64,000 nucleotides of DNA from Rhodothermales bacterium (GTDB lineage Bacteria > Bacteroidota > Rhodothermia > Rhodothermales > Bin80): positions 17,995 through 81,994 of the forward strand of contig JANQES010000094.1 in the NCBI GenBank assembly GCA_028278205.1, given 5' to 3'. Below, in pieces: positions 6,698-26,961 of this stretch (within the stretch, counting starts at the first letter, position 1; every line of letters starts with the position of its first letter). Below the pieces are notes generated by a model. The model was not told the DNA's origin. It ran no database searches and saw only the letters and a program-made list of their open reading frames with translations. A program made the translations under genes and the position numbers.

Positions 6698-6721
6698 GAT
6701 GTACCTCTTCGTTTGCGTGAT
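6656..6721. repeat. Direct repeat copy 2 flanking the precursor gene
   Basis: The 52 nt at 6656-6707 are identical to 7070-7121, with degenerate similarity for about 14 nt more. Confidence 0.85.
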
Positions 6722-6787
6722 GGAGAGGTTATTTCTGGATGCGCCCTCAGCAACCGCGAGAGCCTGGCACCCTCATGATTACAGCGG

Positions 6788-7111
6788 CTAATTGCTCCAA
6801 TCGCCCAGATCGCAGGCATCGCATGCAGGACAAGGTGAGCCGCCTGCGGCCTGCTCCAGGTCTGCCTCGCTCAACTCCTCCCCTGCCGAGACCGGAGCCG
6901 GCAACGCCGCCGCATAATCGTACCCCTGCGCGTCGAAAAACCTGATCGTGAAGCTCTCGGGCACGGCCACGCCCGTCTCCTGGCGGATGGCTGCGTGCGG
7001 ATCCTTCAGCGCCAGGGCGCGGAATTCGGGGTCGCTCGCCGCCCGATGAAGCACTGCTTCGATGGCGGCCTGGTGATCCTGTCCGGGCCGTTCGACTGAG
7101 TATCTGCTCAT
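6788..7111 (-). CDS. RiPP precursor peptide with NHLP-type (nitrile hydratase-like) leader and Cys/Asp-rich core
   Basis: 107 aa. Leader AASDPEFRALALKDPHAAIRQETGVAVPESFTIRFF...EELSEADLEQAAGG, then core SPCPACDACDLGDWSN. AGGAGG lies 7 nt upstream. The ATG overlaps the TGA of the upstream rSAM gene (ATGA). Confidence 0.8.
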   Translation of the reverse strand: MSRYSVERPGQDHQAAIEAVLHRAASDPEFRALALKDPHAAIRQETGVAVPESFTIRFFDAQGYDYAAALPAPVSAGEELSEADLEQAAGGSPCPACDACDLGDWSN

Positions 7112-7135
7112 GATGTACCTCCTTGTTTGAGTGAC
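7070..7135. repeat. Direct repeat copy 1 (rSAM 3-prime end plus precursor 5-prime end)
   Basis: See 6656-6721. The two copies are 414 bp apart. Confidence 0.85.
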
Positions 7136-8622
7136 TGGTGCTTTCGCCAACCGAGGTGATGCCGGTCGAAGTCGTTGAGGTTGTCGTCGATCATGATGCC
7201 GAGTTCCACCGCGCGCCTGAGTTCCTGGCACCAGCGATCATCCGGCTCGTGCATCGATCCGTGCTCTTCTAGGCTCATGTGAAAGCAGCCGCCGCCGCAG
7301 AAATACCGCGCCCAACACGCGCTACACTTGGGATGCGACAGGCCGTAGTTCTCGAAGTAGGGTTGACGCCGGGTCAGGTCGAAGCCTTCGTTGACGTTAC
7401 CGAGCTTCATGTCTTCCTGCCCCACAAAGCGGTGGCACGGATACACATCGCCGGTGTTGGAAATGCTCATGTAGCTTCGACCGGCGCCGCAGAAATACAG
7501 CTTTCTATTCTTCGTCCAAAGCCGCTTCAAAATGTCGTTGAACCGAGAGGAATAGACGGGGCGGCGTGTTTTGATCAGGTTGATCGTCTCCCGGGCTATC
7601 TGCTCCAGGCTGTTTAAGATTTTCTGCAAATGTACCTGCTTGAGATGCGAGTCGGGCTGCTGGAGCATCACTACATCCGCCCGATGATACGTGGGGCGAT
7701 CCGTGAGCACGGGCAGCGCCTGGAACAGGTCGTCCTCCTCCACGACGCCGGCAGCGACAGCCTCATCAGCGGGCACCTCCTCCAGATTAGGCATCGCGAC
7801 GGTGGTCAACTGAACCGCTTTGAAGCCGATCTCAAGCAGCGCGCGTTGCACCTTTTCCAAATCGGCATTGTAGCCGGTGATCGTAGCGCGCCCGCTGGCC
7901 CGTCCGTCTCTTGAGTCAAGAAAACGTTCTACCCTGGCCTTGATATCTTCGTAGGACCCTTTACCTCCTTTGAAGGGCCGGTTTTTATTCTGCATCTCGG
8001 CATCGCCATCATAGCTGACGACGACGCCGAAGTCGTGTTCGTTGAGGTAGTCAATCGTCTCCTCATTAAATCTGGTCCCGTTGGTCGTTATGGTGAAAGC
8101 AATCTTTTTGCCCTTCGTTTCGGCTTTTTCGGTTGCATAGGCCACCACCTCCTTGATCAGTGGGAAATTCAGCAGCGGCTCGCCCCCAAAGAAACAAATC
8201 GTTAACTGCTCAGCGTCTCCTGCATTATCGATCAGGAAGTCAACCGCTTGATAGGCCGTTCCGCCATTCATATACCCTTTGTGGCCGTACTCTCCGCCCA
8301 CGCCGTAGCAGTAAATACAATCGAGGTTGCAAAGCTGCGCCACGTTCAAGGCGATGGTGGCGATGGGCGCCTTTTCAGGATTCGCAAGCTTGACTTGAGG
8401 CAGCGCAGGCGGTGCGTCCAGTCTCAGGTTCAATTGATCGAGCGCCTCCAACAACGCCGGCTCGACCTGCCGGTCATCGAGCACCGGTTGCTCGCCGAGA
8501 TCCCGAACAGCCTTCGCCAACGGCGCACTGATGCGATAGGCCTCCATGTGCTCAACGTGGAACAGATACCACACATCTTCAAGCGCGAAGGTATGATGCT
8601 CGGCCAGATAAAAGACGGACAT
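7108..8622 (-). CDS. Radical SAM / SPASM-domain peptide maturase
   Basis: CNLDCIYCY (CxxxCxxC) near aa 98. C-terminal auxiliary-cluster cysteines CGAG...YPCH...HPKCSACWARYFCGGGCFH. Confidence 0.9.
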   Translation of the reverse strand: MSVFYLAEHHTFALEDVWYLFHVEHMEAYRISAPLAKAVRDLGEQPVLDDRQVEPALLEALDQLNLRLDAPPALPQVKLANPEKAPIATIALNVAQLCNLDCIYCYGVGGEYGHKGYMNGGTAYQAVDFLIDNAGDAEQLTICFFGGEPLLNFPLIKEVVAYATEKAETKGKKIAFTITTNGTRFNEETIDYLNEHDFGVVVSYDGDAEMQNKNRPFKGGKGSYEDIKARVERFLDSRDGRASGRATITGYNADLEKVQRALLEIGFKAVQLTTVAMPNLEEVPADEAVAAGVVEEDDLFQALPVLTDRPTYHRADVVMLQQPDSHLKQVHLQKILNSLEQIARETINLIKTRRPVYSSRFNDILKRLWTKNRKLYFCGAGRSYMSISNTGDVYPCHRFVGQEDMKLGNVNEGFDLTRRQPYFENYGLSHPKCSACWARYFCGGGCFHMSLEEHGSMHEPDDRWCQELRRAVELGIMIDDNLNDFDRHHLGWRKHQSLKQGGTS

Positions 8623-8805
8623 AGGACGTGGGGATACGAACTTCGTGGAGAAAGGAAGCCGGCTACCGTCGTGTCGTCAAGATGTGTGCCAGAGATGATG
8701 CAGCGGCGGTGAGCGGCGCCTCCAGTCCGTCGTAGAGCCCGCTTTTTTAAACAGACGCGCCGGGGAACGATGCCCGGCAACCGAGCCGGCGCCCCCCGGC
8801 ATGCT

Positions 8806-8965
8806 GTTCCCTCCCTTCGTATTCCGCAGGGCTGTTAAGTGCTCTGAAAATGGTCGTTCGGCAACACCAACCAGTTTCCCCTCCTTTCGCAGGAGGGGAA
8901 CTTGAGATACCACGCCGAAGAGAACTTAACAGCCCTGCCCGCAGACGGGAACCAGGAGGGGAACT
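8806..8965. repeat. Nested inverted-repeat structure upstream of the rSAM operon
   Basis: Perfect 15-bp pair 8826-8840 / 8924-8938 encloses a 9-bp hairpin 8876-8884 / 8892-8900. An outer pair lies near 8806-8815 / 8956-8965. A direct repeat of about 49 bp sits at 8891-8939 and 8954-9003. Confidence 0.75.
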
Positions 8966-9117
8966 TGGACCGCTACCTCGAAGAGAACCCCGGCAGCCCT
9001 GCCTCGTAATCCGGATGAATAGAGCGAGACCTCGGAGAAGTAGAGCACGCTTTCGAGCATCGGAACCGGATGTTTATGTGTTCCCTTGAATTCTATTAGG
9101 AAGGTCGATTTTTCAAA

Positions 9118-9162
9118 GTCGGGACGGCGAGATTCGAACTCGCGACTCCTTCAACCCCATTG
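9118..9162 (-). repeat. tRNA-Pro 3-prime half fragment (att-like direct repeat)
   Basis: 45 nt match 25143-25187 (3-prime half of the intact tRNA-Pro) with 1 mismatch, in the same orientation. No 5-prime half or cloverleaf is present. Confidence 0.85.
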
Positions 9163-9254
9163 GTGTGACTATCGTGCTAGCATACGCTACAGGTCGCATT
9201 TCGGCGTCGTTTTGAGGATTTTTCGCCCCCCTATGCTAGCAAACGCAGGAGATA

Positions 9255-9292
9255 GCAGGGGGCGTACGTACACGTTGACGTACACCCCCTGC
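9255..9292 (-). terminator. Hairpin downstream of the caspase gene
   Basis: gcagggggcgtacgt / acgtacaccccctgc form a 15-bp stem (1 mismatch) with an 8-nt loop, 28 nt after the stop. No clear U tract. Confidence 0.4.
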
Positions 9293-9319
9293 CTGCCTCA
9301 AAGACTTGCTTCAGCATGA

Positions 9320-10219
9320 TCAGATCGTAAAAGGCTTCTCGGCGTCGAAGCTTAAATGGTCCGGCCCGATCACGTAGTGGTTGGGCTGTTGCTTTTCAGG
9401 CATCTTCGCGATGATCTCCTGGTAAAACGCCTCATAGTCCCCCTCGAAAGCTCCCTCGCCCCACACCTCTAACAGCGTAGCCGTAAACCGGCCATGGGGG
9501 ATGCTCGGGTGTTCCATGGAGTACTGGTCGTCCTGGCAGCCCGATATCAGCCGCACCCTGGCGTGCAACGACGAGGGGTTCTCCGGCAGGGCTTGCTGGA
9601 TGGCTACGTAGAACGGCGAGTTGTTCGTAAACGTCCGCACCGCTTCGGCGGGGGGCATGAACCGGCCCGCCGGCACTTCGCCTTCCGGCGCGTCGGGGTC
9701 TTTGGTTATCGTGCCGCTGTGGCAGCTGTCCGAGAGCACCAGCACACGCACGCCCTCGGCAAACTCGGCCCATAGCTCGTGCAGTTCGTCGTCGAGGATC
9801 TGGCCGTCGTAGAGGCACCAGGTCTCATCGATGTCGTCCTCCTCGTCGTCGTAGCCCTCTTCGTCGGGCACGGTGCCGCCATGGCCGGCGTAGGTGAGCA
9901 AGAAGCAATCGCCTGTTTTGAGCGAGCGGGCCGCGCTGCGGATGCCCTGGATCACGCCCTCACGCGTGGCAAAGTCGGACAAGAGCACGCTCGACCGGAA
10001 GCCTTGTGCGCTGGCAAGCCCGCGGAGCGCTTCGGCATCGGCATGGCAGTTGGGCAGGTAGCCGTCCCAGCCGCTGTAGTGATCGGGGTCCAACCAGTTG
10101 ACCCCGATGTGGAGGGCCAGGCCTTTGGGCCTGGCATCTGCGGGTTGCGCCTCGGCTTGTGCCGCCGGGGCATCGCTTAATTCCTGGGGCACTTGACGGC
10201 CCGTATCAGGTCCAGCCAT
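9320..10219 (-). CDS. Caspase-fold peptidase (C14 family)
   Basis: His/Cys dyad motifs LTYAGHGG and VLSDSCHSG. 299 aa with a low-complexity N-terminus MAGPDTGRQV. Confidence 0.85.
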   Translation of the reverse strand: MAGPDTGRQVPQELSDAPAAQAEAQPADARPKGLALHIGVNWLDPDHYSGWDGYLPNCHADAEALRGLASAQGFRSSVLLSDFATREGVIQGIRSAARSLKTGDCFLLTYAGHGGTVPDEEGYDDEEDDIDETWCLYDGQILDDELHELWAEFAEGVRVLVLSDSCHSGTITKDPDAPEGEVPAGRFMPPAEAVRTFTNNSPFYVAIQQALPENPSSLHARVRLISGCQDDQYSMEHPSIPHGRFTATLLEVWGEGAFEGDYEAFYQEIIAKMPEKQQPNHYVIGPDHLSFDAEKPFTI

Positions 10220-10286
10220 GAGTCTATTCGTTTTTGGGTGTGAAGGATGGAAGTCATAACGCGTGCGTTGACACCCGGCGCGTCGC

Positions 10287-13200
10287 TCAGGCGGACAGGG
10301 CCGGAGCCCAGGTTACAGGCAGCGCGCCGAGGGTTTGGAGGCCGGCCTCCGAAGAGAAGTAATTCAGGTGATGACACACCACGTCGAGCGTCTGCGGGGC
10401 CGGCTGCCGGACGCCGCCCACAGCCCCGATGCTCCGGCTGCTCACTGCGATGTCGTTGGGCTCGTCGTCGTACACGATACCCCCGACACCCACCGTGGCC
10501 TTTTCCAGCAGCCGCTTAAACCCGCCGCCTTGCACCTCGTAGTCGGTGATGTCTCCGGCGAGGATCGTGTAGGGAATGCCGGGGTCGTCGCTGCTGTTGA
10601 GGGTATTCAAGAACGTAGAGCCGGGGGTCATCTGGCCCAGCGTGACGGTCACCTCTTCGGCCCCTTTCAGGACGTTGAGCACGGTGCCGGCAAAGGGGAT
10701 CTGCTTCGTGATAAAGTTGATCGACAGGTTGAGCGCCGTGGAGACGAACTTCCGGTATTGTTCGATGGTGCCGAACTTGCTGCCGCCGTTGGGCGTGCCG
10801 GCCAGGATCAGGTGATCGACCACCTTGTTGCCCTCCTCCTGCTCGATGAACCAGCGGGAGACCAGCCCGCCCATCGAGTGAGCCAGGATGGTGAGATGCT
10901 TGCCGTCGTCTTCTGTGAGCCCGGCCAGGGCCAGCTCGCGCTTCAACGTCTGGGCGGTCTCTTCGATGGGAGTGTTGAGGTTTTCGTAGTCGTAGGTCAG
11001 CATCAGATCGAAACGGTCTTTGAGGCTCCGGCCCTCGGCGTCGCGGGCGTGGGGCAGTCCGGCGGCTATCGATTCGGTGTCGCCGATGATGCCGTGGATC
11101 GCCAGCAGGATGGTGTCGGCGGCGGCGACCTTTTCGTTCAGGCTCTCGCTGCGGCGTTCGACGCTGCCGTCTTCCTGGAAGTCCGCCCAGCAGAGCTTAT
11201 TGATGCGGTCGGTCTCTTGCTTGAGCGCCACCTTGAAGAAAGCCATCTTGAGCGCCTTGAACAGGCTCCGGTCCTGCGGTTCCTCGCCGAAGGGATTGAC
11301 GGCCTGCCCGCCGTCGGTGAGTACCGGCTCGACGTCGGGCAAGGCGCGGATGCGGACGACGGTTTCACCCTCTTCGACCGCGGAATCGCCGATGACGACG
11401 AAGTTTTGCCCGTCGAAGGCGATGGGCAGCAGCATCGCGTCGTTGTCGTCCGCGCCGGGCAGGACGATTTCGAGCGGGTCGTCGAAGAGCGCCGCCGGAT
11501 CGTCGATCTCCAGGTTGCTGAGTTCCACCACGTTCTGCGCGCCGAGATCGCGGTGGCTGCTGAAGTTCATCATCTGGAAGGCCGGGTCGTCGAAGAGCGC
11601 GAAGCGGTTGGCCGGGTCGGTGCTGCGCGTGCCGGTCTGGGCCGCGCCGAGGTTGACTTTTGCGCGGACGCCGGCGTGCGGCCGGATGCGCAACGCGCCG
11701 CCGGCCAGGCTCACCTCGTTGGCGGCCTGGACCTCATCGACCTGCCGGACCATCGTCACCCGGATCGTCCGGCTGGCCCAGGCATCGAAGACCTTTTGCG
11801 GGGCAAACGCGCCGAACGTCGCCCGCGACCCGCCCAGGCCGTCCTGGAGAAGCTGGATGTAGTCCAACTCTTCGGTCGTGACGAACAGCTTGAAATAGAC
11901 GGTGGCCTCTTGCTCGTCTTCGTTGAGGCCCCACCCCATAATGCCATCCGGCATCCCCTTCATCAGCGGGAATATGGCCTGGCCCTCGTGTTCGCCGGGC
12001 CTGAAGACGATCTCGCCCTCGTCGCACTGGATGCTGTAGTCGTTGTTGAGCAGCAGTAGATAGAAATAAAGCTCCTGCGTGGCGCTGGTCTTGACGACAG
12101 GCTTGAAGCCCATCAAGTCGGCCTTCGCGTCCGCATTCCAGAACGTGTTCTCCTTGGAAGCATACAGCTTGATCTCCGGCCCGGTGAAGGTGCCCTGAGA
12201 CACCGGCCCTCTATCACCTGCCTCGAAAACCTCCACGTCGAAGTCGAACATATTCTCGATCCGCGAATCAGGGTTTTCCAACGCCACCGTCCGCTCCCAG
12301 CGCGCAATGCGGCCCAGGCTTTGGAGGATGAGTTGGGCTAATTTGGCCGTGTACGCACCCTGGTCAGGCCCCTCTTCGAGGTGTTCCTGATGGATTTTCC
12401 GCCTGCTTTCCACGTCGCGGATGATGAACGCGCCGTCTTGCGCTTCTACTTCCACCTCCGGCTGCTCGTCGCCGTCGCGGGTCTCTACGTAGAGGACGTT
12501 TTTCGAGCGGTCCCAGTGTTCTTTGAGCAGGTCCACACCCGCCACGTCGCCGTGAATCCAGACGTATTTGGGCGGTGCGGGTAAATGATGGAGGACGCCT
12601 TGATAGGTCTTCTTGGGTTCCAACGCGGCGTCCGCCGGTAGCGCGAGCGGGCTGCGCTGCGCACCGACACGGGTGATGGTGGCCTGGGCGACGACTTGCT
12701 TGTCGGGTGCCGGCCCCCGGACTTCGACTTCGAGGGGTTTCTCCGCCTGCGTAGGCAGGCCGTGGATGGCGCCGCACTTGACGTACCAGGCGTCGCTGCC
12801 CGCGTCGTGGTAGACCTCGTAGGTGTCCGGGTCGCCCAGGGGCTCGCCGCTCAGGAAGCGGGTGTAGGGGTTGAAGCTGCCGATGGTCTCGAACTGCGGC
12901 GTCTGGTTCTTGCCGATCCGTTTGGCCGAAGCGCGGGTGCGGACGAAGAGGTCGGCGTAGTTGATGGCGCCGTTGGCGCTGCCCAGCGCGCGCATCAGGC
13001 TGCTGGTGAAGATGCCGCCGAAGGGCTTGTCGCCCGCCTTCTGGACGCTCTCGCAGGCCGAAAACAGGACGTGTTTGGACAGGGGGACGTGCAGCGCCTC
13101 GCCCTGCCGGGCATAGTAGCCGTCGAGATACGAAGCCAGGGGCCGCGCGTCGCCGCCACGAGCCGGGACGTTGCGCGTCCGGAACAGCGGATCGTCGCCG

Positions 13201-13682
13201 AGGTCGCGGGTGCCGGAGCCGGAGTGGCAGCAATCCAGCGAGACGACCAGGTGCGGCCCCGACGCCTTCTCGGAACCATCGGGAAACTGCGTCTCCACCT
13301 CGTGCAGCAGGGCGGCCAGTTCTTTGTCGGCCAGGTGGAGGCCGTCGGGGCGGCTGTCGAAGCAAACCAGCGTCTGGTCTTTGCCGTTGGGTTCTAGCTT
13401 GAGGAATTCCTCGGCGGTGGGTTCTTCGGAACCGTGGCCGCTGAAATGAAAGAAGGCCACGTCGTCCGCGCCGGCCCGGCACAGGTGCTCGCGGAAGCCT
13501 TTGACGAGGTTGGCGTAGGTGGCATTTTCGTTTTCGAGCCGGTGGATGAAAAGCTCGCCCTCGCCGAACTGACCGCGGAGGAATTTTTCAACCTTGTCGA
13601 TGTCGAAGATGCAACCGTTGAGCGTAGAGACGGGCGCCGGGTAGGTGTTGATGCCGACGAGGAAAGCGTATAGGCGTTTCAT
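10287..13682 (-). CDS. Caspase-fold peptidase fused to a C-terminal alpha/beta-hydrolase (lipase/esterase-like) domain
   Basis: ATG at 13682 (MKRLYAFLVGINTY). FHFSGHGS and SLDCCHSGSG dyad at the N-terminus. C-terminus has LAIHGIIGD, nucleophile elbow ILAHSMGGLV, and LAGTPNGGS. About 550 aa of unassigned middle region. Confidence 0.85.
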   Translation of the reverse strand: MKRLYAFLVGINTYPAPVSTLNGCIFDIDKVEKFLRGQFGEGELFIHRLENENATYANLVKGFREHLCRAGADDVAFFHFSGHGSEEPTAEEFLKLEPNGKDQTLVCFDSRPDGLHLADKELAALLHEVETQFPDGSEKASGPHLVVSLDCCHSGSGTRDLGDDPLFRTRNVPARGGDARPLASYLDGYYARQGEALHVPLSKHVLFSACESVQKAGDKPFGGIFTSSLMRALGSANGAINYADLFVRTRASAKRIGKNQTPQFETIGSFNPYTRFLSGEPLGDPDTYEVYHDAGSDAWYVKCGAIHGLPTQAEKPLEVEVRGPAPDKQVVAQATITRVGAQRSPLALPADAALEPKKTYQGVLHHLPAPPKYVWIHGDVAGVDLLKEHWDRSKNVLYVETRDGDEQPEVEVEAQDGAFIIRDVESRRKIHQEHLEEGPDQGAYTAKLAQLILQSLGRIARWERTVALENPDSRIENMFDFDVEVFEAGDRGPVSQGTFTGPEIKLYASKENTFWNADAKADLMGFKPVVKTSATQELYFYLLLLNNDYSIQCDEGEIVFRPGEHEGQAIFPLMKGMPDGIMGWGLNEDEQEATVYFKLFVTTEELDYIQLLQDGLGGSRATFGAFAPQKVFDAWASRTIRVTMVRQVDEVQAANEVSLAGGALRIRPHAGVRAKVNLGAAQTGTRSTDPANRFALFDDPAFQMMNFSSHRDLGAQNVVELSNLEIDDPAALFDDPLEIVLPGADDNDAMLLPIAFDGQNFVVIGDSAVEEGETVVRIRALPDVEPVLTDGGQAVNPFGEEPQDRSLFKALKMAFFKVALKQETDRINKLCWADFQEDGSVERRSESLNEKVAAADTILLAIHGIIGDTESIAAGLPHARDAEGRSLKDRFDLMLTYDYENLNTPIEETAQTLKRELALAGLTEDDGKHLTILAHSMGGLVSRWFIEQEEGNKVVDHLILAGTPNGGSKFGTIEQYRKFVSTALNLSINFITKQIPFAGTVLNVLKGAEEVTVTLGQMTPGSTFLNTLNSSDDPGIPYTILAGDITDYEVQGGGFKRLLEKATVGVGGIVYDDEPNDIAVSSRSIGAVGGVRQPAPQTLDVVCHHLNYFSSEAGLQTLGALPVTWAPALSA

Positions 13683-13841
13683 GATAATTCGTTGTAGGTT
13701 GGTTAAAGAATAAATCCCGTCGAGGAAGGGCTGTGCAATGAACACAGGTTGGAGCCGCGCCCGGCCTGTCACAGTCGCGCTTTACCTATCTATGCCTAAA
13801 ACAGCACGGAATTTTTCATACCCTCGAAAAAAAGAGGGCAC
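13683..13841 (-). promoter_or_regulatory. Promoter/5-prime-UTR module copy A (upstream of the caspase-lipase gene)
   Basis: Alignable along its whole length, up to the ATG, with 21509-21670. Conserved core GAGGGYATGAAAAATTCCGYRCTGTTTTAGGCATRGATAGGTAAAG. Possible TTCCGY-N17-TAGGTA promoter. Confidence 0.55.
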
Positions 13842-13878
13842 TTGCATGGAGGTCTTCGTATTGCGTTCAGAAAGGCAC

Positions 13879-15315
13879 CTACGACAACACTTCGACGCCT
13901 GGAAGCAAGTCTTCCAAAATGGCAAACCGTACGCGTGTGCGTTCCTGGCTTTCGTCGTTATTCGAAATCAGGCCGCGCCGTACCTGCTTTTTGACCCTTT
14001 TCAGCGTTGCCTGGTGCGAGGTAACGTCATTATAGAGGTCCTCGTCTCTATCCTTCAGACCGGTTTCAAGCAAGTCGAGCGCCTGTTCGAGTTTATCCGA
14101 GGCGACGAGTTGCCGGATCTCTTCGACGGCGTCCTGCTTTCCAGGGCTGGGCATTGTGCTTGAGGGCCGGCGTGCGGAGGGTTGGGGTGCGCGGGACGGG
14201 GTCAGTTGCGGCGCGAAGAGGGTGCCGTCGGGCGAGCGCATAAACAGCACGGGTGTGGCCCATTCTACGGAGTCGTCCAGGCAGATCGCCACGCGGCCCT
14301 CGGCCACGGCCTCATCCACCGAAACGCCGAGCGCCAGTTGTCTATAGATCTCTCCGGCAAACGTGATCGCGGCGGTGTCGGTGATGGGAAACTGCATCGC
14401 CACCACCGCCGGGATGCCTTCCATCACCAGCGCCGAGGCCACCCCCGCGAACGGGTCGAGGTGGTCGGTTTTGGTGCTCTGGGCCGTCTGACACGCATTC
14501 AAGAAGACCAGGCGCACGCCGGTGCCGCGCAGCGCAACCCGGAGCTGATCCCCGCTCACCTTCAACTGACAACCCTGCTCATCCTCCATCAACAAGACCC
14601 CCTCTCCGGTGTTCGCGTCGAAGGTGCCGTGGCCCGAATAGTGCAAGACGTGAAACGGCTGCGCTTTGAGCCGGGCGCGTAAGGCTTGCAACGTGGTGCC
14701 CTGGACGACCTCGACTGCGACGTGCTGCGTATCCTGCCAGCTCGCTTCGATCTTTTGTCGCTCTGCCTCCAGGTTGAGCGCGTCGGTGCCGGGCGGGTTG
14801 GCCAGCACCACGAGGATGCGCAGTGGCGGCGCGAACGGCGGCGGATCTTCGGGGCGCATCACGTCGAGGTAGCGCACGACCGGGGTCTGGCTGTTGAGGT
14901 TCAGGTATTCGTTCTTCTCCGGGTCGTAGAGGAGTTCCCAGGGGAGGTTCGCCAGGAGAGCATGGTCCGGCTGGTTCAGGTCGAGGTGGAGCTTGATGCG
15001 CAGCCCACCTTTGCCGTAGACCCGGCCTCGGCTCTCGGAGAACGCCGTGCCCACCGGCCCGGTGAACAGCGCCTCGAAGAGCCGGGTGCCTACCGCGCGC
15101 GGCGAGAGATCCTGGGTGAAGATCGGCGCAAACGTGCCGCGATACCGCCCCAGCGCAGCCAGGACGCCCTCGGCTTCGCCGGGCGCGTAGGGAAGCTGGA
15201 GCGGTGAGGTGGACGTTTGGCCGGCGGGAGACTGTATAACCTGGACGGTGAAGCGCCCTTCGGCCTGGGCCTCCATCTGAATGGAGAAGTCTTCGTAGCG
15301 GATCATGGTGTTCAT
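13879..15315 (-). CDS. CHAT-domain protease with C-terminal helical adaptor-like (EAD-like) module
   Basis: LPWELLYD, HVLHYSGHG and LVFLNACQT (CHAT His/Cys). The last 85 aa align with the C-terminus of the SIR2-like protein. Confidence 0.85.
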   Translation of the reverse strand: MNTMIRYEDFSIQMEAQAEGRFTVQVIQSPAGQTSTSPLQLPYAPGEAEGVLAALGRYRGTFAPIFTQDLSPRAVGTRLFEALFTGPVGTAFSESRGRVYGKGGLRIKLHLDLNQPDHALLANLPWELLYDPEKNEYLNLNSQTPVVRYLDVMRPEDPPPFAPPLRILVVLANPPGTDALNLEAERQKIEASWQDTQHVAVEVVQGTTLQALRARLKAQPFHVLHYSGHGTFDANTGEGVLLMEDEQGCQLKVSGDQLRVALRGTGVRLVFLNACQTAQSTKTDHLDPFAGVASALVMEGIPAVVAMQFPITDTAAITFAGEIYRQLALGVSVDEAVAEGRVAICLDDSVEWATPVLFMRSPDGTLFAPQLTPSRAPQPSARRPSSTMPSPGKQDAVEEIRQLVASDKLEQALDLLETGLKDRDEDLYNDVTSHQATLKRVKKQVRRGLISNNDESQERTRVRFAILEDLLPGVEVLS

Positions 15316-15349
15316 GAGGACTGGGGTAAGGGGCTCTTCTATTGGGGAT

Positions 15350-17197
15350 TCACTGGCTGGCCGTTAACTGCTCGGTGGATTGCCCGGAGGCTTCCTTTAG
15401 CACTGAATTGAGGCTATCCTTTATCGAGCGCAAGCGTTCGATTTCTTTCTTCTTAACCTCCACGAGGCTGTCATTCCTGGCTTGCTCATAGATGATAACA
15501 TCTTGTTCTAATCCTTTAATTTTCAGATTTTTTTCTTCAATCTTTAAGGCCATGATACTATCTGCTGCATCCTTAACGAGGCCGCCTTCCTCAGCTTGCC
15601 GATAGATGATGGTGTCTTGTACTAATACGCCAATACTTGTTTTGATTTCGCCAATCTGTGCACCTAAGGATGCCTGCAAATGCTCTCTAGCCATTTGATA
15701 GTTCTCCTCAGCTTCTTGTGTCGCTCGTTTGGCAGAATTGTAATAGAAGCCGACGAACACCAGCGCGATTAAGGCGATGCCAGCTAAGATATAGGCGAGG
15801 CGGCGTCCCTGGACGGCTTTAACCCGAAGCGCAGCTTCCTCCTTCGCTTTGGCCAGGGCCTCCTCGGCCCGTCGCTCAGCTTCGCGGCGTTCAGCTTCCG
15901 CTTGCCTGTGCAGGGCTTCCTGTTCGCGGCGTCGTTCTTCGGCCTGGCGGGCGTGTTTGGCCTCCAGGATGGGCTCCACCAGCGTATCGTGGCTCAACTC
16001 GTAGGTGTAGCCGCCGCTCATGTTGGGCTCGGCCCGCAGCAGGTGGTGTTTGTTGACCAGCAAGCTCAGGATCTCATCGGAGATCCCTTTACCGTGGATG
16101 ATGCCTTCGTAGAGCGAGATCCGCCGCTTGTCCGGCTCGAAGATCAGGTCTTCCTCGATCAGCTTGCGCACGGTGAGGCGTTCCTCATCGGTGGGTATCT
16201 CGTCCAGCATGGCGTCGTAGTAGCGCCGGTAGATCCGGCTGAGGTCGCCCAGGTCGTCGGGGCGAACCTGGGGGATGCCGGCCTGATTTCGCTGCCTGAC
16301 GGCGCCGTCCTCAACCAGGTGTTCGGCGTGCTGGCAGATGATCTGGAGCTGGGTGGTCTCGATGGTAGCCTGGCCGCCGCCGGAGAGAAAATTGAGGATG
16401 AAATCGAGCGCCTCATCGGTGTAGTCGAAGCGCTGGACGGCAAAGTCGGAGTCGTTGTGATAGGCCGGGTTGAGGATGGCGTCTTCGGCTTGAAGACGGG
16501 TCAGCGGTTTGAGTTGATAGGTTTTGTGGAGGATATCCGGCAGGTGGTCTTTGAGTTCGTCGAGGAAGCTCATGCGGTCGGAGCGGATGGCGAAGACCAC
16601 TTTGAGGTTGAGCGGCTGGAAGAGGGCTTCCTGTTCGGCGGCGTCGAGGGTTACGGCCTGGCGTTCGAGCACCGCGCGGACGGGCTTGGGGATCCGTTCG
16701 TAGAGCGCCTGGGCCAGTTGGGCGGCAAAGGCCTTAATCTGAGCCGGAGGGTAGGTGAAGAGCTCTTCGAACTGATCCAGAATCAGCAGCAGGGGCTGAT
16801 CGGGGTGAAGGCCCTGCACCGACTTCAGGGCTTGCCAGAGCGGAACCGCTTCGCCGAAGCGGCCGGTCCAGTCGCCGGCCCGGCCCAGGGCGCGGAGGCG
16901 TTCCAACACGTTTTGCAGGGGCGTGTGTGCATCGCCGGCCTCGGTGTAGCTGCCGAAGCGGAGCGGCACGGCAAAGACCCCGGCGCGCCCGCCTTCACGA
17001 GATTCTTGCAGCCGGGGGACCACAGCGGCATTGAGCAGCGAGCTTTTGCCGAGGCCGGATTTGGCATAGAGTACCACCATCTGCTCCAGCCTGATCTTTT
17101 CGACCAGGCGGCGGGTGTCTTCTTCGCGCCCGTAGAAGATACGGCGGTCGTTCGGGGTAAAGGGCTGGGCGCCGGGATAACGATAAGCTGTGCTCAT
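15350..17197 (-). CDS. STAND-type P-loop NTPase (nSTAND-like) with coiled coil, one TM helix and a C-terminal tail
   Basis: YPGAQPF..IFYGREEDT, Walker A AKSGLGKSS, Walker B LLLILDQFEELF, FAIRSD. Then a charged coiled coil, the TM helix LAYILAGIALIALVFVGFYY, and a 129-aa AT-richer tail. Confidence 0.85.
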   Translation of the reverse strand: MSTAYRYPGAQPFTPNDRRIFYGREEDTRRLVEKIRLEQMVVLYAKSGLGKSSLLNAAVVPRLQESREGGRAGVFAVPLRFGSYTEAGDAHTPLQNVLERLRALGRAGDWTGRFGEAVPLWQALKSVQGLHPDQPLLLILDQFEELFTYPPAQIKAFAAQLAQALYERIPKPVRAVLERQAVTLDAAEQEALFQPLNLKVVFAIRSDRMSFLDELKDHLPDILHKTYQLKPLTRLQAEDAILNPAYHNDSDFAVQRFDYTDEALDFILNFLSGGGQATIETTQLQIICQHAEHLVEDGAVRQRNQAGIPQVRPDDLGDLSRIYRRYYDAMLDEIPTDEERLTVRKLIEEDLIFEPDKRRISLYEGIIHGKGISDEILSLLVNKHHLLRAEPNMSGGYTYELSHDTLVEPILEAKHARQAEERRREQEALHRQAEAERREAERRAEEALAKAKEEAALRVKAVQGRRLAYILAGIALIALVFVGFYYNSAKRATQEAEENYQMAREHLQASLGAQIGEIKTSIGVLVQDTIIYRQAEEGGLVKDAADSIMALKIEEKNLKIKGLEQDVIIYEQARNDSLVEVKKKEIERLRSIKDSLNSVLKEASGQSTEQLTASQ

Positions 17198-18282
17198 ACC
17201 AGTTCCTCGTTAAGACTCAGTAGATTAAATCGTAGCTTGGCGCGTGAGGCAGAAGCTTCCTCTTCCGTGACGATACCCTGCCGCTCCTTACGCTTCTGGC
17301 GCGAGAGCCGGCCACTGAGACTGATCGCCTCGTCGAGGAATTCGTCCTCGCCGATGTCTTCGAAGTGATCGGTCAAGAAGGCCAGCGCATCTTCCAGGCG
17401 ATCCTGCTCCACCATTTGCTTGACCCGCTCGGAGGGTCCGGCTCCCGCTGCCGGGTCGGGCCGGAGCAGGCCGGCGGCGGCGCATTGCGTGTGCAGTTGG
17501 TCTATGAACGCCCGCACGCCTTCCTGGTCGCGGATGATGCGGATGTCGAACTCGCCATCGAGCACATTCATCACCGCCTGGTCTACCTCGGTCTGCTCCG
17601 GCACCCAGGTGTAGGCCACGTGGCTGTCGTTGATGCTCCGGATGAGCCGTAGCAAGAGTTGCACGTACCACTTCTCGAACTGAAAGCCCAGGAAGACAAA
17701 GTAGCGCGCCCGTTGCAACGCAGCCTTGAGACTGGAGCCAAGCTCGCGAGCCCCGAGGATCGATTTGATGTATTCGAAGAGGTCAGCGTGGGTGAGGATC
17801 AGCGATTCCTCGTCTTCGATGCAGCCGAAGAGGTCGTAGAGCAGCGGCCGGTCGGCGGTGGGGGCGTCCATCTCCGCCCCGCAGCGCTTCATATGATAGA
17901 ACCCATAGTTGAACAGATAGGGGATCTCCAGGCGGGGAAAGGTCTGCCTGGGATTGAGGTAGGGAGAGAAGGAAAGCAGCAAGTGCAGTTGTATCGAGGC
18001 CAGCTTACGCAAGAGATCCGGCACGAGGGGATGTTTTTTCAACTGGTCTTTGAGCGTGAAGTAGCTCTCGTTCTGGGCCGAGCGTTTGCCGAAGAGGAAG
18101 AGTTCGTCGTGCTTGTAGTAGGCCAGCAGGTTGCGCTCGTGCTCCTGCCGGATCGTTTCCATCAGGTACGGATGCAGCGGGCGACTCTCGCCGTCTACAT
18201 CGATCTCCAGCATGTTCGGCCCCAGGAGGACAACGCATTTGTCCTCTCGGATGGCTTGAAGAAGGTGGTCCCAGTTAATCAT
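17194..18282 (-). CDS. SIR2_2-like (divergent) domain protein with C-terminal helical adaptor-like module
   Basis: Motif order resembles the SIR2_2 family (VVLLGPNM, LLLSFSPY, LLYDLFGC, LILTHADLFEY, FVFLGFQFEKW), but the expected catalytic positions look substituted. Its TGA overlaps the NTPase ATG. Confidence 0.6.
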   Translation of the reverse strand: MINWDHLLQAIREDKCVVLLGPNMLEIDVDGESRPLHPYLMETIRQEHERNLLAYYKHDELFLFGKRSAQNESYFTLKDQLKKHPLVPDLLRKLASIQLHLLLSFSPYLNPRQTFPRLEIPYLFNYGFYHMKRCGAEMDAPTADRPLLYDLFGCIEDEESLILTHADLFEYIKSILGARELGSSLKAALQRARYFVFLGFQFEKWYVQLLLRLIRSINDSHVAYTWVPEQTEVDQAVMNVLDGEFDIRIIRDQEGVRAFIDQLHTQCAAAGLLRPDPAAGAGPSERVKQMVEQDRLEDALAFLTDHFEDIGEDEFLDEAISLSGRLSRQKRKERQGIVTEEEASASRAKLRFNLLSLNEELV

Positions 18283-18335
18283 CGTAGTTGGGTTTTATTG
18301 AGCGCGCCGGGGCACGGGTTTGAAAAGACAGGAGA

Positions 18336-21218
18336 TTACTGCTTCGGTTCGGGCGGCACGAGCATTTCTCCCCGGTCGTTGATGTAAAACATCAGGTTAT
18401 GCTCGGCCACGTAGACCCGGGCAACCCGCTCGTCGTTCTTGTCATGGAAGGGCGTCACGGCGTCGTAGCGGGCCTCGATGGGGTCATAACTATCGCGGTT
18501 TTTATCCCAGCGCATGAAGCCCCATTTGCCCTTTTGTTTAACCAGGAGCAAGTTGGAACTGGAATCGTTGGAACCGGAATCAGCGGAGATACCGTAACCG
18601 ATCTGCTCATAGTCACAGGGTAGGAAACGGAGGGTATCCGTCTTCGCCCCGTCGGAGCCGTTCGCCGCGAAGGCCACGAAGCCCTTGCGGTTGCCTTGCC
18701 AGGTGAGATACATGCGACTTCCGACGTACGCCAGACTGTCGTACTCCGGTGAAAGGACCACCTCCCCGGCAGCATTGATCAGGCCGACTTTGCCGTTTCT
18801 CTCTACCTGCGCGAGCCCCTCGAAAAAGGGCGCTACCCTATCAAAGAGATACATCGGGTCAACGACTTCGAGGCCGTGCTTGTCGATCACGCCCCATAGA
18901 CCGACAACGAGGCTGTCCTGGTCGTTCACTTCTATGCTGTCTCTCTTCACCCAGGCGAGCCCCTCGGAGAAATCCCTTATCTGATCATACTGCGGTTTGA
19001 CGATGTTAAACGGTTCGGCGACGATGTCGCCCTGATTGTTGATAAAACTCCATTGATCCTCTCCCTTCACCAAAGCGAACCCCTCGGAGAAATCCCTTAC
19101 CTCATCATAGCCATTCGTCGGGTCGACGACGAATTTGCCCTGCTGGTTGATTGCGCCCCATTGGCCGTCTCTCTTCACCCAGGCGAGCCCCTCGGAGAAA
19201 TCCCTTACGTCATCATACCCATTCGTCGGATCGACGACGAGGCTGTTCTTGTTGATAAAGCCGTATTTCTTTGTGCTGTCTTGGTACACCCAGGCGAGCC
19301 CCTCGGAAAAAGGCCCTACCCTATCAAAGCCGTACTGCGGATCGACGACGAATTTGCCCTGCTGGTTGATCACGCCCCATAGGCTGCCCTGGCGCACCCA
19401 GGAGAGCCCCTTGGCACGCCCTACCCTATCAAAGTCATACTTCGGGGCAACGACAATGCCGTCCTGGTTGATGTCGACGACGACGCTGCTGTCCTGGTTG
19501 ATAAAGTCGTATTCTGTGCTGTCTTGGCGCACCCAGGCGAGCACCTCGAAGAAGCGCCCTGCCCTATCAAACTCAAGTTCCAGATTGACGACGAGGCTGC
19601 CCCGCTGGTTGATCACACCCCATTGGCCGTCTCTCTTCACCCAGGCGAGACCCTCGGAGAACGCCCTTACCTCATCATACCCATTCGTCGGATCGACGAC
19701 GAGGCTGCCCTGCTGATTGATCACGCCCCATTGGCCGTCTCTCTCCACCCAGGCGAGCTCTTTGGAGAAGCGCTCTACCCTATCAAACGCATGATCCAGT
19801 TTGACGACTTCGACGCCCAGCGTGTCGATCACGCCCCATAGGCCGGCCCTCTGCACCCAGGCGAGACCCTCGGAAAAGGGTTCTACCTCATCAAACGCAT
19901 GATCCAGTTTGACGACTTCGACGCCCAGCGTGTCGATCACGCCCCATAGGCCGGCCCTCTGCACCCAGGCAAGCCCTGAGGAGAACTCTCTTACCTCATC
20001 AAACTCATGTTTCAGATTGACGACGAGGCTGCCCTGCTGGTTGATCACGCCCCATCGGCCGGCCCTCTGCACCCAGGCAAGCCCTGAGGAGAAGCGCCTT
20101 GCCCTATCAAAGTCATGCTTCGGGTCGACGACGAATTTGCCCTGCTGATTGATCACGCCCCATAGACCGACGTTGAGGCTGACCTGGTTGATCACTTTTT
20201 TGCTGTTTTTGCGCACCCAGGCAAGCCCCTCGGAAAAGGACCCTACGTAACTAATATGTTCCAGTTTGACGATGAGGCTGTCCTGCTGGTTGATCACGCC
20301 CCATTGGCCGTCTCTCTTCACCCAGGCAAGCCCCTCGGAGAACGCCCTTTCATGTTTCAGATTGACGACGGGGCTATCCTGCTGGGAGAAGTGCTCTTCT
20401 TTATCAAACAGCGGTTTGACGATGCGGACACTCTGCTGGCGGTACGGTTTGCGCGACACGAAATCAGGCCTATCCACTTCATTCTTTTTGCATCCCTTTG
20501 CGTCGAATGCGGAAACTACAGGCTCTTTGGCCTTGTCTGGAATCCCCCCATAGTAGTTGAATGTATCTGTAACATTGCTATCCGATAATACTGCGGAGTG
20601 CAGCCAATTGTAGCTTTCGCTTTTTTGCTGCTCTTCACAGTCACACGCGCGTCCTTGTGTACACACCAACCAGTACTTATCCTCACTTTGTGCAATGGCT
20701 ATGCCCTTCCAGAAGCCTTTGGGGTCTTCCCAAAGAAAATCTCCATAACGCTGCCCCGCTGTGTCTATCACCGCAAACTTTTTATTCTTAATACTATACG
20801 CCCACGAGAAATTTTCCTCGCTGCCTTCTTCAAAAAAATATTCTTTCATATCAGCGAGGAGCCTGGCGATTTCTTTCTTTTTTTTTCTGAGTTCTTCGGA
20901 AAGGTCAGCTTGATGCATCTCATATTTGATTCCACCGAAAAGATGATCATTCATCCTTTCAGCGACCGCCTTTGCGCTGTCCGGTCTATACCGCGCTGCC
21001 GCCTGATACTTGTGGATCGCTTGCTCGTATTTCCGTCTCTCCACTAAGTTATCGGCATCGGACATCAGGCGCTTGTAGGTCGTGCCTTCTTCGGTCGTCT
21101 CTGCGTACTGCGTGTCAGCCTGAGCAACGATATCCGATTGTGCCCGTGTGACCTGGGGGTAACTGCCGGCCAGGATTAACGCAGCGAGGAGCGCGATGGG
21201 GTAGCGGCGTGCGTTCAT
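18336..21218 (-). CDS. Secreted WG-repeat (KWG-type) protein, about 17-19 repeats
   Basis: Signal peptide MNARRYPIALLAALILAGSYPQVTRAQS. Repeated unit F(S/D)EGLAWV.RDGQWGVINQQG..VV with a period of about 36 aa. The N-terminal region of about 230 aa is AT-richer. Confidence 0.85.
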   Translation of the reverse strand: MNARRYPIALLAALILAGSYPQVTRAQSDIVAQADTQYAETTEEGTTYKRLMSDADNLVERRKYEQAIHKYQAAARYRPDSAKAVAERMNDHLFGGIKYEMHQADLSEELRKKKKEIARLLADMKEYFFEEGSEENFSWAYSIKNKKFAVIDTAGQRYGDFLWEDPKGFWKGIAIAQSEDKYWLVCTQGRACDCEEQQKSESYNWLHSAVLSDSNVTDTFNYYGGIPDKAKEPVVSAFDAKGCKKNEVDRPDFVSRKPYRQQSVRIVKPLFDKEEHFSQQDSPVVNLKHERAFSEGLAWVKRDGQWGVINQQDSLIVKLEHISYVGSFSEGLAWVRKNSKKVINQVSLNVGLWGVINQQGKFVVDPKHDFDRARRFSSGLAWVQRAGRWGVINQQGSLVVNLKHEFDEVREFSSGLAWVQRAGLWGVIDTLGVEVVKLDHAFDEVEPFSEGLAWVQRAGLWGVIDTLGVEVVKLDHAFDRVERFSKELAWVERDGQWGVINQQGSLVVDPTNGYDEVRAFSEGLAWVKRDGQWGVINQRGSLVVNLELEFDRAGRFFEVLAWVRQDSTEYDFINQDSSVVVDINQDGIVVAPKYDFDRVGRAKGLSWVRQGSLWGVINQQGKFVVDPQYGFDRVGPFSEGLAWVYQDSTKKYGFINKNSLVVDPTNGYDDVRDFSEGLAWVKRDGQWGAINQQGKFVVDPTNGYDEVRDFSEGFALVKGEDQWSFINNQGDIVAEPFNIVKPQYDQIRDFSEGLAWVKRDSIEVNDQDSLVVGLWGVIDKHGLEVVDPMYLFDRVAPFFEGLAQVERNGKVGLINAAGEVVLSPEYDSLAYVGSRMYLTWQGNRKGFVAFAANGSDGAKTDTLRFLPCDYEQIGYGISADSGSNDSSSNLLLVKQKGKWGFMRWDKNRDSYDPIEARYDAVTPFHDKNDERVARVYVAEHNLMFYINDRGEMLVPPEPKQ
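19784..19970. repeat. Recent tandem duplication inside the WG-repeat gene
   Basis: The 79 bp at 19784-19862 are identical to 19892-19970 (period 108 bp, or 36 codons). Confidence 0.9.
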
Positions 21219-21403
21219 GATCTCACCTGTCGTATTAATGCATTCAAGAAAAGACTACCGCATGGTTTGATTGAAAAGAGAGGAAGCCCGGTGTCTTGGC
21301 CCACACCCCCGACGCAAGCGAATACCTCGCGTCAGGGCTGCGGGCCGTACACACCTGTCAGAAACCCCAGGTCCTACTTAAGCCGGCGCCAGTGTTTCTG
21401 CCG

Positions 21404-21508
21404 TTACGAGGGGGGCGCAGCGCGTCCGCGGTCAGGGCCTGCGCGTCCGTGGTCGGGGCCTGCGCGTCCGTGGTCGGGGCCTGCGCGTCCGTGGTCGGGT
21501 CCAGCCAT
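21404..21508 (-). CDS. Possible small ORF, 34 aa, heptad-repeat peptide MAGPDHGRA(GPDHGRA)x2 GPDRGRAAPPS
   Basis: ATG at 21508 with GGAGGT 7 nt upstream. Coding is uncertain and this may be a gene remnant. The first codons and upstream bases resemble the caspase gene start at 10219. Confidence 0.3.
   Translation of the reverse strand: MAGPDHGRAGPDHGRAGPDHGRAGPDRGRAAPPS
21420..21502. repeat. 21-bp tandem repeat, about 4 copies
   Basis: The unit gcgcgtccg(c/t)ggtc(a/g)gggcct repeats at 21420, 21441, 21462 and 21483. Confidence 0.9.
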
Positions 21509-21670
21509 GATTGATACCTCCTTTTGGATTGTTTAAGGAAAGATCCCTTCGAGAAAGGGCGCTGAGATGAAAACAGATTGAGGCCACACACGGCCTGCCA
21601 CAGTCACCCTTTACCTATCCATGCCTAAAACAGTGCGGAATTTTTCATGCCCTCGCAAAAAAGTGGGCGA
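21509..21670 (-). promoter_or_regulatory. Promoter/5-prime-UTR module copy B (upstream of the small ORF and WG operon)
   Basis: Paralog of 13683-13841, with the same spacing to the downstream ATG. Confidence 0.55.
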
Positions 21671-21862
21671 AAGACTTTTAACTCTAACGGGTGTTCGGGA
21701 AAAGAAGAAGCCCTTAAATCATTAAAAATATTAATCGGGTAGGAGACGGGGATGACTTGAAAAGAGGATGGCTGCCCTGTCTTCCAAGATTTATATCCCG
21801 AACTCCTGTTAACGCTATCACGAAGGGCGTCAAAAGCCCCGCCGGTTGCCTGTTTTTTGGAG

Positions 21863-24721
<2,859 letters not shown>

Positions 24722-25082
24722 GGCAGGCAAGGGCTGCCGGTGTGCGTCGAGGTCAATGGGGACACGGCCTGAGCACTTCAGCGCATTGGGGGGGTGCGGC
24801 TCTACTGGTAAACAATAAAACGAGCAAACTCTTAGAAAACAAGATCAAATGAGAAAAAACCCAAAAAACGAGACCACCCGCTACAGCATACCTTGTTTTT
24901 CCTCAGCGGCAGGCCGGGGCGCAGCCTCCGGCGTGTCCATCGCGGCGAAGTGTTCGAGCCCGTTTCCAGCTCGAATGCTTCCTGGCCATCAACCTGATGG
25001 GACATGATGTGCGGGTGCGTATCAGGTGCATTTTCCTGGACAGATCTGGACTGAGCCCTCAAAATTCACTATTTCAACAACA

Positions 25083-25128
25083 AAACCCCCTCAAAAGGCC
25101 ACTAATGACCTTTTTAAGGGGGTTTTTG
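25083..25128 (-). terminator. Hairpin terminator downstream of tRNA-Pro
   Basis: aaaaccccct...agggggtttt outer stem with inner aaaagg/cctttt pairing. Followed by a T-rich run on the minus strand. Confidence 0.5.
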
Positions 25129-25143
25129 GCCTTGAAAGCCCTG

Positions 25144-25217
25144 TCGGGACGGCGAGATTCGAACTCGCGACCCCTTCAACCCCATTGAAGTGCGCTACCT
25201 GGCTGCGCTACGTCCCG
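25144..25217 (-). tRNA. tRNA-Pro (anticodon GGG)
   Basis: Manual cloverleaf: acceptor CGGGACG/CGTCCCG, D arm GCGC-AGCCAGGTA-GCGC, anticodon arm CTTCA-ATGGGGT-TGAAG, T arm GCGAG-TTCGAAT-CTCGC, discriminator A. 74 nt, CCA not encoded. Confidence 0.9.
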
Positions 25218-25694: not shown

Positions 25695-25751
25695 AAAGGG
25701 AGAGAGGGGGAAAGGGGGATAAATGAATTTTTCTCCCTTTCCCCCTCTCTC
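25695..25751. repeat. Intergenic word-hairpin (GGGAGAGAGGGGG words)
   Basis: aaagggagagagggggaaaggggga pairs with tctccctttccccctctctc. Lies between the divergent MerR and EamA genes. Confidence 0.8.
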
Positions 25752-25833
25752 GCTCTCGCCCTCTCCCAATAGAAAGCCTACATACCTAAAAACGCTCTAT
25801 ATTGGCCCCTCATTCGCCCAGAGCCACCCGCCC

Positions 25834-26754: not shown

Positions 26755-26801
26755 GACGTGAGTATTCCTGAGCGTCGATACGTTGATGAGGTGTCGGCGC
26801 A

Positions 26802-26898
26802 GGTCACTGGTCATTGGTCACTGGTCACTGGTGAGGTTTTTTCCAAGAACCAGTGACCAGTGACAGCGAGCGCCAGCGAGCGTAATGACCAGTGACCC
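26802..26898. repeat. Intergenic word-hairpin (CACTGGTCA words)
   Basis: ggtcactggtcattggtcactggtcactggtg faces aaccagtgaccagtgac and aatgaccagtgaccc. Same word family as 63507-63570. Confidence 0.8.
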
Positions 26899-26961
26899 AC
26901 GCCAAGTCCTCTACGAAGCGCAACGCCGAGAAACACCTACTCCGGCGCGATAGCCGAACCC

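Follow-up and report, generated by a model that had tools for sequence, protein, structure and literature searches.

How does a 16 kb run of genes come to lie between a tRNA gene and a second copy of that gene's 3' half, when no integrase accompanies it? The question is raised by a locus of a Rhodothermales bacterium (contig JANQES010000094.1), of which a stretch of 64,000 nucleotides (nt) was analyzed; this stretch is called the window in the following, and all window-wide searches were limited to these 64 kb. The window holds a single tRNA gene according to ARAGORN, a tRNA-Pro(GGG), and 16 kb away a displaced 3' fragment of it. We consider it highly probable that a tyrosine integrase inserted DNA into tRNA-Pro and that the integrase was lost afterwards, leaving a relic similar to the cis-mobilizable elements (CIMEs) of streptococci and other Firmicutes reviewed by Guedon et al. 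2017 (PMC5704250). The positions of all features are collected in Table 1.

The fragment and the 3' part of the intact tRNA gene lie in direct orientation and are identical at 44 of 45 positions, a match that did not occur once in 100 dinucleotide-preserving shuffles (0 expected). Their sole mismatch falls into the variable loop (GACTCC vs GACCCC). The repeat covers two nucleotides of the anticodon-stem 5' strand, the anticodon loop, the variable loop, the T arm and the acceptor 3' strand, and both of its ends are sharp. At the outer end it stops one base beyond the discriminator, with only 4 of the further 30 nt identical, and at the inner end the next 34 nt are unlike the tRNA 5' half (P=0.17). 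A first-pass annotation, made from the sequence of the window, had reported an intact tRNA-Pro(GGG) on the minus strand, a 45-nt repeat in the same orientation with one mismatch, and a likeness that breaks off at the tRNA 3' boundary; all of this was reproduced, the tRNA by ARAGORN as well as by Rfam. The fragment starts at the canonical crossover position of the anticodon-loop class, and the crossover itself probably took place in or near the anticodon loop. Among the islands integrated into tRNA genes (tDNA) that were collected by Islander (Hudson, Lau and Williams 2015, PMC4383910, citing Williams 2002) the anticodon-centred sites are the commoner class (2083 vs 1836 T-stem sites), and 3760 of the 3919 islands possess a 3' fragment (PMC4383910).

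Such a copy could in principle also arise without an integrase, from a decayed duplicate of the tRNA gene or by a chance segmental duplication, and the lack of an integrase as well as the host-like composition reported below would agree with this. Uniform decay would not yield 98% identity over 45 nt followed by random sequence on both sides, and the native flank and the arm words described below fit an integration. Neither ARAGORN nor Rfam calls the fragment at 9.1 kb a tRNA, and no further partial copies of tRNA-Pro were found in the window. As the tRNA 5' half occurs only once in the window and Rfam detects no full-length remnant at 9.1 kb, a decayed second tRNA was rejected. We therefore regard an origin without integrase as extremely improbable. 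An assembly chimera was dismissed by reasoning, since a misjoin at a shared 45-mer would produce one copy and not two with flanks of their own 16 kb apart.

After integration into a tDNA the regenerated gene adjoins element DNA, and the displaced fragment adjoins the old chromosomal flank (PMC4383910). To compare the two flanks, contigs of relatives and homologues (designated L0xx) were used, and 24 nt were aligned to the tRNA-downstream flank of the relatives with at most one point per matching base. The 24 nt directly outside the fragment (9094-9117) reached 18/24 with L023 and L026 (P<0.00025), 16/24 with L019 (P=0.0003), 15/24 with L002 (P=0.0015) and 13.5/24 with L008 (P=0.003). The corresponding 24 nt outside the intact tRNA (25119-25142) match none of these five relatives' flanks (P>0.1). 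Because the native terminator is located outside the fragment and not outside the intact tRNA, the ancestral tRNA 3' end has been displaced by 16 kb; the stub of this terminator directly outside the fragment likewise marks position 9118 as a real ancestral junction.

A second line of evidence comes from the same locus in other genomes. Homologues of the neighboring transporter EamA assign the window to a Rhodothermales bacterium. The closeness of relatives is given here as amino-acid identity of EamA, which amounts to 80-82% for the closest genomes compared. The order tRNA-Pro(GGG), MerR, EamA, SbcC, CvpA, YqeY, continued as far as each contig reaches, is kept in every relative found at 60-85% amino-acid identity, and the collinear block on the right flank extends from MerR to a Tricorn-like gene. 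In L003 the locus is present without the tRNA, and in L006 the tRNA is found about 6 kb from EamA. The tRNA-Pro sequence of the window is identical to that of L016, L019 and L023. Left of the tRNA no relative has anything in common with the window, so that a stable core block ends and a hypervariable zone begins at the tRNA. Three contigs (L004, L022, L024) end before passing the tRNA and two (L002, L005) less than 1 kb past it, with no integrase seen in the part available. An exact DNA search of metagenomes for the junction of flank and fragment gave 0 matches, and an EamA search of a genome collection returned only two distant metagenome-assembled genomes.

What follows the tRNA differs between the relatives. 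L016, L017 and L018 (80% EamA identity, the closest that reach past the tRNA) carry a Xer-like tyrosine integrase together with orf99 beside it. The integrase of L016 (L016:267-1244) is short of about 90-100 N-terminal residues that are found in its five nearest homologues. At the same position L023 and L025 (68%) possess a second type of tyrosine integrase, 27% identical to the first. In L023 a D5-type primase-helicase and a PIN toxin-antitoxin pair come after it; the contig of L025 is not long enough to include this part. In L019 (74%) only the last 43 codons of the second type remain (2951-3079, 91% identity), a case in which the loss of an integrase from this locus can be seen directly. 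On the sequence available L008, L020 and L021 have no integrase, and housekeeping genes (RlmL, LigA) come after their tRNA. A 52% homologue of the L016 integrase was found in the same geometry beside a tRNA-Ala on a marine contig, L028. Homologues of the L016 type are rare and lie on contigs of at most 16 kb, from which a complete element was not recovered, and a viral collection yielded no relatives of either integrase type.

The tRNA-Pro(GGG) beside MerR-EamA-SbcC is thus a recurrent integration hotspot of at least two tyrosine-integrase families. The first-pass reading of the two 45-nt copies as left and right attachment sites (attL and attR) gains support from the native flank at the fragment (P≤0.003 with five relatives) and from the integrases beside the same tRNA. 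The elements of L016-L018 and of L023 and L025 resemble the island in their target, their MerR-EamA-SbcC neighborhood and in having paired words some 100-150 nt away from the end of the tRNA. They differ from it in that they encode tyrosine integrases and have no nSTAND1 cargo, and none of their proteins left a remnant in the window.

The absence of an integrase from the island, also noted in the first pass, withstood every search and extends to the whole window. All seven open reading frames (ORFs) of the island carry other domains according to Pfam, and none is an integrase, excisionase or transposase; domains of recombinases, relaxases or type IV secretion are likewise missing from the island. 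A six-frame Pfam scan of the non-coding stretches 24731-25142, 21219-21862 and 8623-9319 gave no match even at E=1. With tblastn neither integrase type of the relatives had a match in the window at E≤0.01 (the best reached 0.44), nor did five additional homologues of the first type at E≤1e-3. The other large ORFs of the window are ordinary or housekeeping genes by Pfam.

The following history would account for what is directly observed, namely the repeat with its boundaries, the native flank at the fragment, the integrase-free window and the integrases at the same site in relatives. The region 9163-25142 would be the relic of a site-specific integration into tRNA-Pro(GGG) by at least one tyrosine-integrase element. 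The functional gene would now end in the tRNA 3' part that the incoming DNA brought along, and the original 3' part would have been pushed 16 kb away together with the native terminator stub. The integrase module, normally located beside the regenerated tRNA, would have been deleted since, leaving a non-autonomous island with both att cores and arm sequences.

A further hint towards this history arises from short words in the arms of the island. In the relatives direct pairs or arrays of words with 10-12 nt spacing come shortly after the integrase gene, at a distance of about 100-150 nt to the end of the tRNA, and each integrase lineage beside tRNA genes has its own word (Table 1). The contig end of L027, which carries such an array, is near-identical to the region downstream of tRNA-Pro in L005. 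In the fragment-side arm of the island the pair reads ACGTACAC-GTTG-ACGTACAC. The 22-mer TACGTACACGTTGACGTACACC of this arm is identical at 21 of 22 positions to a sequence of L019 (z=10.3) and at 17 of 22 to one of L023; its counterpart is situated just after the integrase stop codon in L023 and just after the integrase remnant in L019, and it is present in L025 too. In the window it occurs once, with 0 occurrences expected. The tRNA-side arm is collinear with the spacer between orf99 and the tRNA in L016 (29/37 identical, z=3.7), with the same order of word pairs and a similar distance to the tRNA, a match we regard as suggestive. The arm words match words that accompany the integrases of L016 and L023 and the integrase remnant of L019 at this tRNA; no remnant of an ancestral protein was found in the window. 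In a viral collection the ACGTACAC pair had five unrelated matches, none of them with a tRNA or an integrase.

Judged by their words, the two ends of the island resemble arms that belong to two separate integrase types. As a consequence of this resemblance, a composite relic appears likelier than one intact element minus its integrase. For ends of this kind the simplest course would be that two elements integrated in tandem into the same tRNA and that both integrases and the internal junction were lost later; we give this two-element history close to an even chance. The 644-nt gap between the WG-repeat and kinase genes (21219-21862) may be such an internal junction or a deletion scar. Together with the GC content of the island genes, which spans 0.548 to 0.637, this repeat-bearing gap fits a mosaic origin without proving it.

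The simplest history would be a single element that integrated once and lost its integrase together with adjacent genes, the differing arm words being normal (e.g. integrase vs excisionase sites). The seven genes are co-oriented and tightly packed and the cores nearly identical, as one would expect in this case, and since the arm likeness to L016 is weak the claim of hybrid arms draws mainly on one strong match. The confinement of the ACGTACAC words to the fragment-side arm does not agree well with a single element, nor does the L016-like word layout of the tRNA-side arm, at the place where L023 and L019 carry ACGTACAC; the spread in gene GC and the gap inside the island point in the same direction. 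We consider the single element a less likely, if quite conceivable, origin.

Several observations weigh against the reading of the island as an integrase-made and possibly composite relic, and must be kept in mind. The 16 kb are missing in eight related lineages with the same right-flank synteny, but neither an exact empty site nor a second copy of the island was seen, and the closest of these lineages have 80% EamA identity and differ in their left flanks too. In L023 no repeat of the tRNA half was found within 9.3 kb. The nearest homologues of the nSTAND1 system described below are located in other genomes, in surroundings where no integrase was called over about 10 kb and tRNAs were left unscanned, in contrast to the tRNA-anchored system of the window. 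The likeness of the tRNA-side arm to L016 has a score of 25, which is below the maximum of 27 reached in 300 shuffles. The words are putative arm-type binding sites of integrases only by analogy with lambda-type integrases. Finally, the composition of the island is host-like: the GC content at third codon positions (GC3) is 0.77, compared to 0.756 ± 0.064 in the core flank, and the tetranucleotide correlation to the right flank is only slightly lowered (0.70-0.87 vs 0.87-0.93), to a degree that the left flank at 1-9 kb shows as well.

The GC content is about 0.60 throughout the window and equal in island and core flank, and composition was rejected as a sign of foreignness because neither GC, GC3 nor tetranucleotide usage distinguishes 9.1-25.1 kb from its surroundings. 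Two readings fit this, an old island whose composition drifted towards that of the host, or a donor of similar composition. A compositional check had been proposed in the first pass and does not set the island apart.

The first-pass annotation had also pointed to word-hairpins, i.e. intergenic tandem words of 7-10 nt followed by their reverse complement, with a different word at each locus (for example GTCATGA, TGTTTTAG, ATTTTGG, CGTACTG or TGGCGAA). Their distribution was as described, with none between 3.1 and 25.6 kb and frequent occurrence from 25.7 kb. On its left side the gap overshoots the island border by 6 kb and is for this reason not usable as an island marker.

These distributions bear on another explanation. 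According to it an old integration, perhaps with subsequent excision or replacement, left the fragment behind as a scar that has ceased to bound one coherent element, and at least 3.1-25.1 kb is a hypervariable zone that was filled piecemeal by several unrelated events. The word-hairpins are absent from this entire region and not from the island alone, the tetranucleotides of the left flank at 1-9 kb deviate as much as those of the island, none of the genes that relatives carry left of the tRNA recurs in the window, and every relative has a different neighbor at this position. A zone filled in this manner would not be expected to retain the native terminator stub directly outside the fragment, which marks an ancestral junction, or arm-type words at both ends at the expected distances, and we regard a piecemeal filling as rather unlikely. 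The decayed integrase-made island remains our preferred reading.

The left flank itself has several features of its own. A RiPP-like (ribosomally synthesized and post-translationally modified peptide) cluster is located just left of the island at 6656-8622, with an NHLP/Frankia-peptide-like precursor ORF (6788-7231, minus strand) and a radical SAM/SPASM maturase (7108-8622, minus strand). A 65-nt repeat at 6656-6720 and 7070-7134 (95% identical) suggests duplicated upstream regions of the precursor. Directly outside the fragment a non-coding stretch of about 500 nt (8623-9117), without Pfam match in six frames, holds a 36-nt imperfect direct repeat (8890-8925, 8953-8988) and an inverted repeat with 20-nt arms (8826-8938). 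Further left, in the hairpin-free part, the genes of a DUF7005 protein (E=3e-155) and of a cytochrome P450 overlap (3130-5564); the pair may be another accessory module.

The 16 kb between the repeats consist of seven co-oriented and tightly packed ORFs on the minus strand. The first pass had called this content accessory-looking, and Pfam agrees, with an nSTAND1/EAD11 conflict system and a TPR kinase, to which a WG-repeat protein has to be added. The nSTAND1 gene is flanked by the CHAT gene on one side and the SIR2 gene on the other, and the EAD11 domains of the CHAT and SIR2 proteins align with each other (E=4e-10). On the nSTAND1 protein no EAD11 was detected by Pfam or BLASTP (E=0.19), and a divergent copy is possible in residues 409-615, which have no assigned domain. 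Besides the window's own protein the closest nSTAND1 homologues are 55% and 50% identical; the few matches with a source name are mostly from Saprospiraceae and other Bacteroidota, and the gene pair of SIR2-EAD11 and nSTAND1 recurs in Bacteroidota and is present in L012 and L013. Between the WG-repeat and kinase genes we note four copies of a G+C-rich 21-nt tandem repeat (GGGCCTGCGCGTCCGTGGTC-like, 21413-21496). The idea that the island kinase is the orthologue of a kinase beside MerR in L003, and hence native, was discarded: with an identity of only 29-35%, compared to 53-63% for the flanking genes, it is a paralogue.

Table 1. Positions of the features discussed; they refer to the window unless a contig designation precedes them.
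Feature	Position	Strand	Remarks
Intact tRNA-Pro(GGG)	25143-25217	-	ARAGORN; Rfam RF00005 at 25144-25217, 61.3 bits
attL-side core copy, 45 nt, tRNA 3' part	25143-25187	-	
attR-side core copy, displaced tRNA-Pro 3' fragment	9118-9162	-	44/45 identical to 25143-25187
Ancestral tRNA-Pro downstream terminator stub (tRNA-proximal arm only)	9094-9117	-	Directly outside fragment
Fragment-side arm	9163-9319	.	Two direct ACGTACAC words 12 nt apart (9266-9285), in hairpin ~9255-9290
Caspase-domain protein, 299 aa	9320-10219	-	Peptidase_C14 E=1.9e-21; PADLOC caspase
Caspase + DUF7379 (alpha/beta-hydrolase-like) protein, 1161 aa	10287-13772	-	Pfam
CHAT protease + EAD11 adaptor, 478 aa	13879-15315	-	CHAT E=9.7e-36; EAD11 E=1.3e-15
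nSTAND1 NTPase, 615 aa, conflict-system core	15350-17197	-	nSTAND1 E=5e-29
SIR2-like + EAD11 effector, 362 aa	17194-18282	-	Pfam; 4-nt overlap with nSTAND1 start
WG-repeat protein, 960 aa	18336-21218	-	WG_beta_rep x11, E=1.9e-114; GC 0.548, island minimum
Non-coding gap, 644 nt	21219-21862	.	21-nt tandem repeats at 21413-21496
Ser/Thr kinase + transmembrane + TPR protein, 955 aa	21863-24730	-	Pkinase E=2.6e-47; TPR
tRNA-side arm, no coding capacity	24731-25142	.	Terminator hairpin ~25086-25122; TTTCAACAACAAAA at 25072-25085
tRNA-side arm words, CTGGAC x2	25036-25051		10-nt spacing
tRNA-side arm words, GGTGC x2	25014-25035		11-nt spacing
L016 words, GTGTGC x2, then TCTGGATA x2	L016:1553-1604		After intervening orf99
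L028 words, GCGTGCA x2	L028:2002-2022		
L023 and L019 words, (A)CGTACAC x2	L023:9287-9305; L019:3097-3118		
L027 words, GGGGACA, at least 7 copies	L027:8595-8695		
L005 words, CGTAGCAC x4, beside tRNA-Pro	L005:575-636		No integrase within 733 nt available
Word-hairpins I	3015-3075, 25697-25754, 26788-26911, 30040-30126, 30704-30818, 31313-31424, 37997-38095, 39970-40047		
Word-hairpins II	40392-40481, 45823-45978, 46989-47056, 49933-50101, 54251-54407, 61892-61963, 63506-63561		

Conflict systems of STAND NTPases and effector-associated domains (EADs) were described by Kaur, Burroughs, Iyer and Aravind 2020 (PMC7159879), and nSTAND1 was named in Kaur et al. 2021 (PMC8195603). The window agrees with these systems in its nSTAND1 NTPase, in the CHAT and SIR2 effectors that share EAD11, and in its caspases. 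It differs from those with a matching EAD for homotypic coupling, as no EAD11 was detected on its NTPase.

Whether the island can still move was left undecided by the first-pass annotation, which allowed for immobilization as well as mobilization in trans. It could continue to be mobile since cores and arms survive and integrase elements use the same site in related populations; excision would then occur in trans through an integrase elsewhere in the genome, or in cis after the arrival of a new neighboring element, as in CIMEs. The cores are nearly intact, both arms have word pairs, integrase-bearing elements on the same tRNA circulate in related populations, and accretion followed by cis-mobilization is documented for the CIMEs of streptococci (PMC5704250). 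Arms of different integrase types would hinder the excision complex of any one integrase, and none is encoded within 64 kb, which makes present mobility improbable in our view. The apparently mismatched arms favor immobilization over mobilization in trans, and the island is probably immobile today. A bolder version, with an equally slim chance, is a mobile defence cassette that is excised, in trans or after accretion, by two distantly related integrase families sharing the tRNA-Pro(GGG) core. If this were true, Rhodothermales genomes would pass immune cargo to one another by hitch-hiking of the CIME type, and the mixed arms would be the trace of an arm exchange between elements at a shared core.

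Two kinds of known system may be compared with the relic. Like the Islander islands it is bounded by a regenerated tRNA gene at one end and by a displaced 3' fragment, in direct orientation, at the other, and it shares with them an identity block from the anticodon loop to the 3' end, a typical size (16 kb) and accessory cargo. It differs from them in the lack of an integrase gene inside and in arms that apparently stem from two integrase types. Because no integrase lies inside, the island would fail Islander solely on the integrase filter (PMC4383910). With the CIMEs it shares the retention of both 45-nt cores (attL and attR) and of word pairs in the arms, the lack of integration and transfer genes, and the location at a tRNA 3' end used by other elements, where tandem accretion is plausible; tandem accretion followed by gene loss is the sequence of events described for CIMEs (PMC5704250). 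Unlike the CIMEs it occurs in a Rhodothermales host, with no sign of a conjugative ancestor and no resident neighboring element, and its apparently mismatched arms argue against mobilization.

In all likelihood the island is a decayed, CIME-like element at an integration hotspot, and probably a composite one. Neither the kind of tRNA-anchored island, a common and well-understood relic, nor the STAND/EAD type of cargo is new, and the current understanding of island biology is unchanged by the finding. New are this Rhodothermales hotspot with its two integrase families and the presence of an nSTAND1/EAD11 system in a decayed island. Finders that require an integrase would miss such an island, which makes it a useful example for the annotation of defence islands in metagenome-assembled genomes. 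The analysis documents an integration hotspot in a poorly studied lineage, the Rhodothermales, and indicates that cargo can outlast its vehicle at this site, in this case a predicted immune system of the NLR-like (STAND NTPase) type whose effectors are caspase, CHAT and SIR2 proteins.

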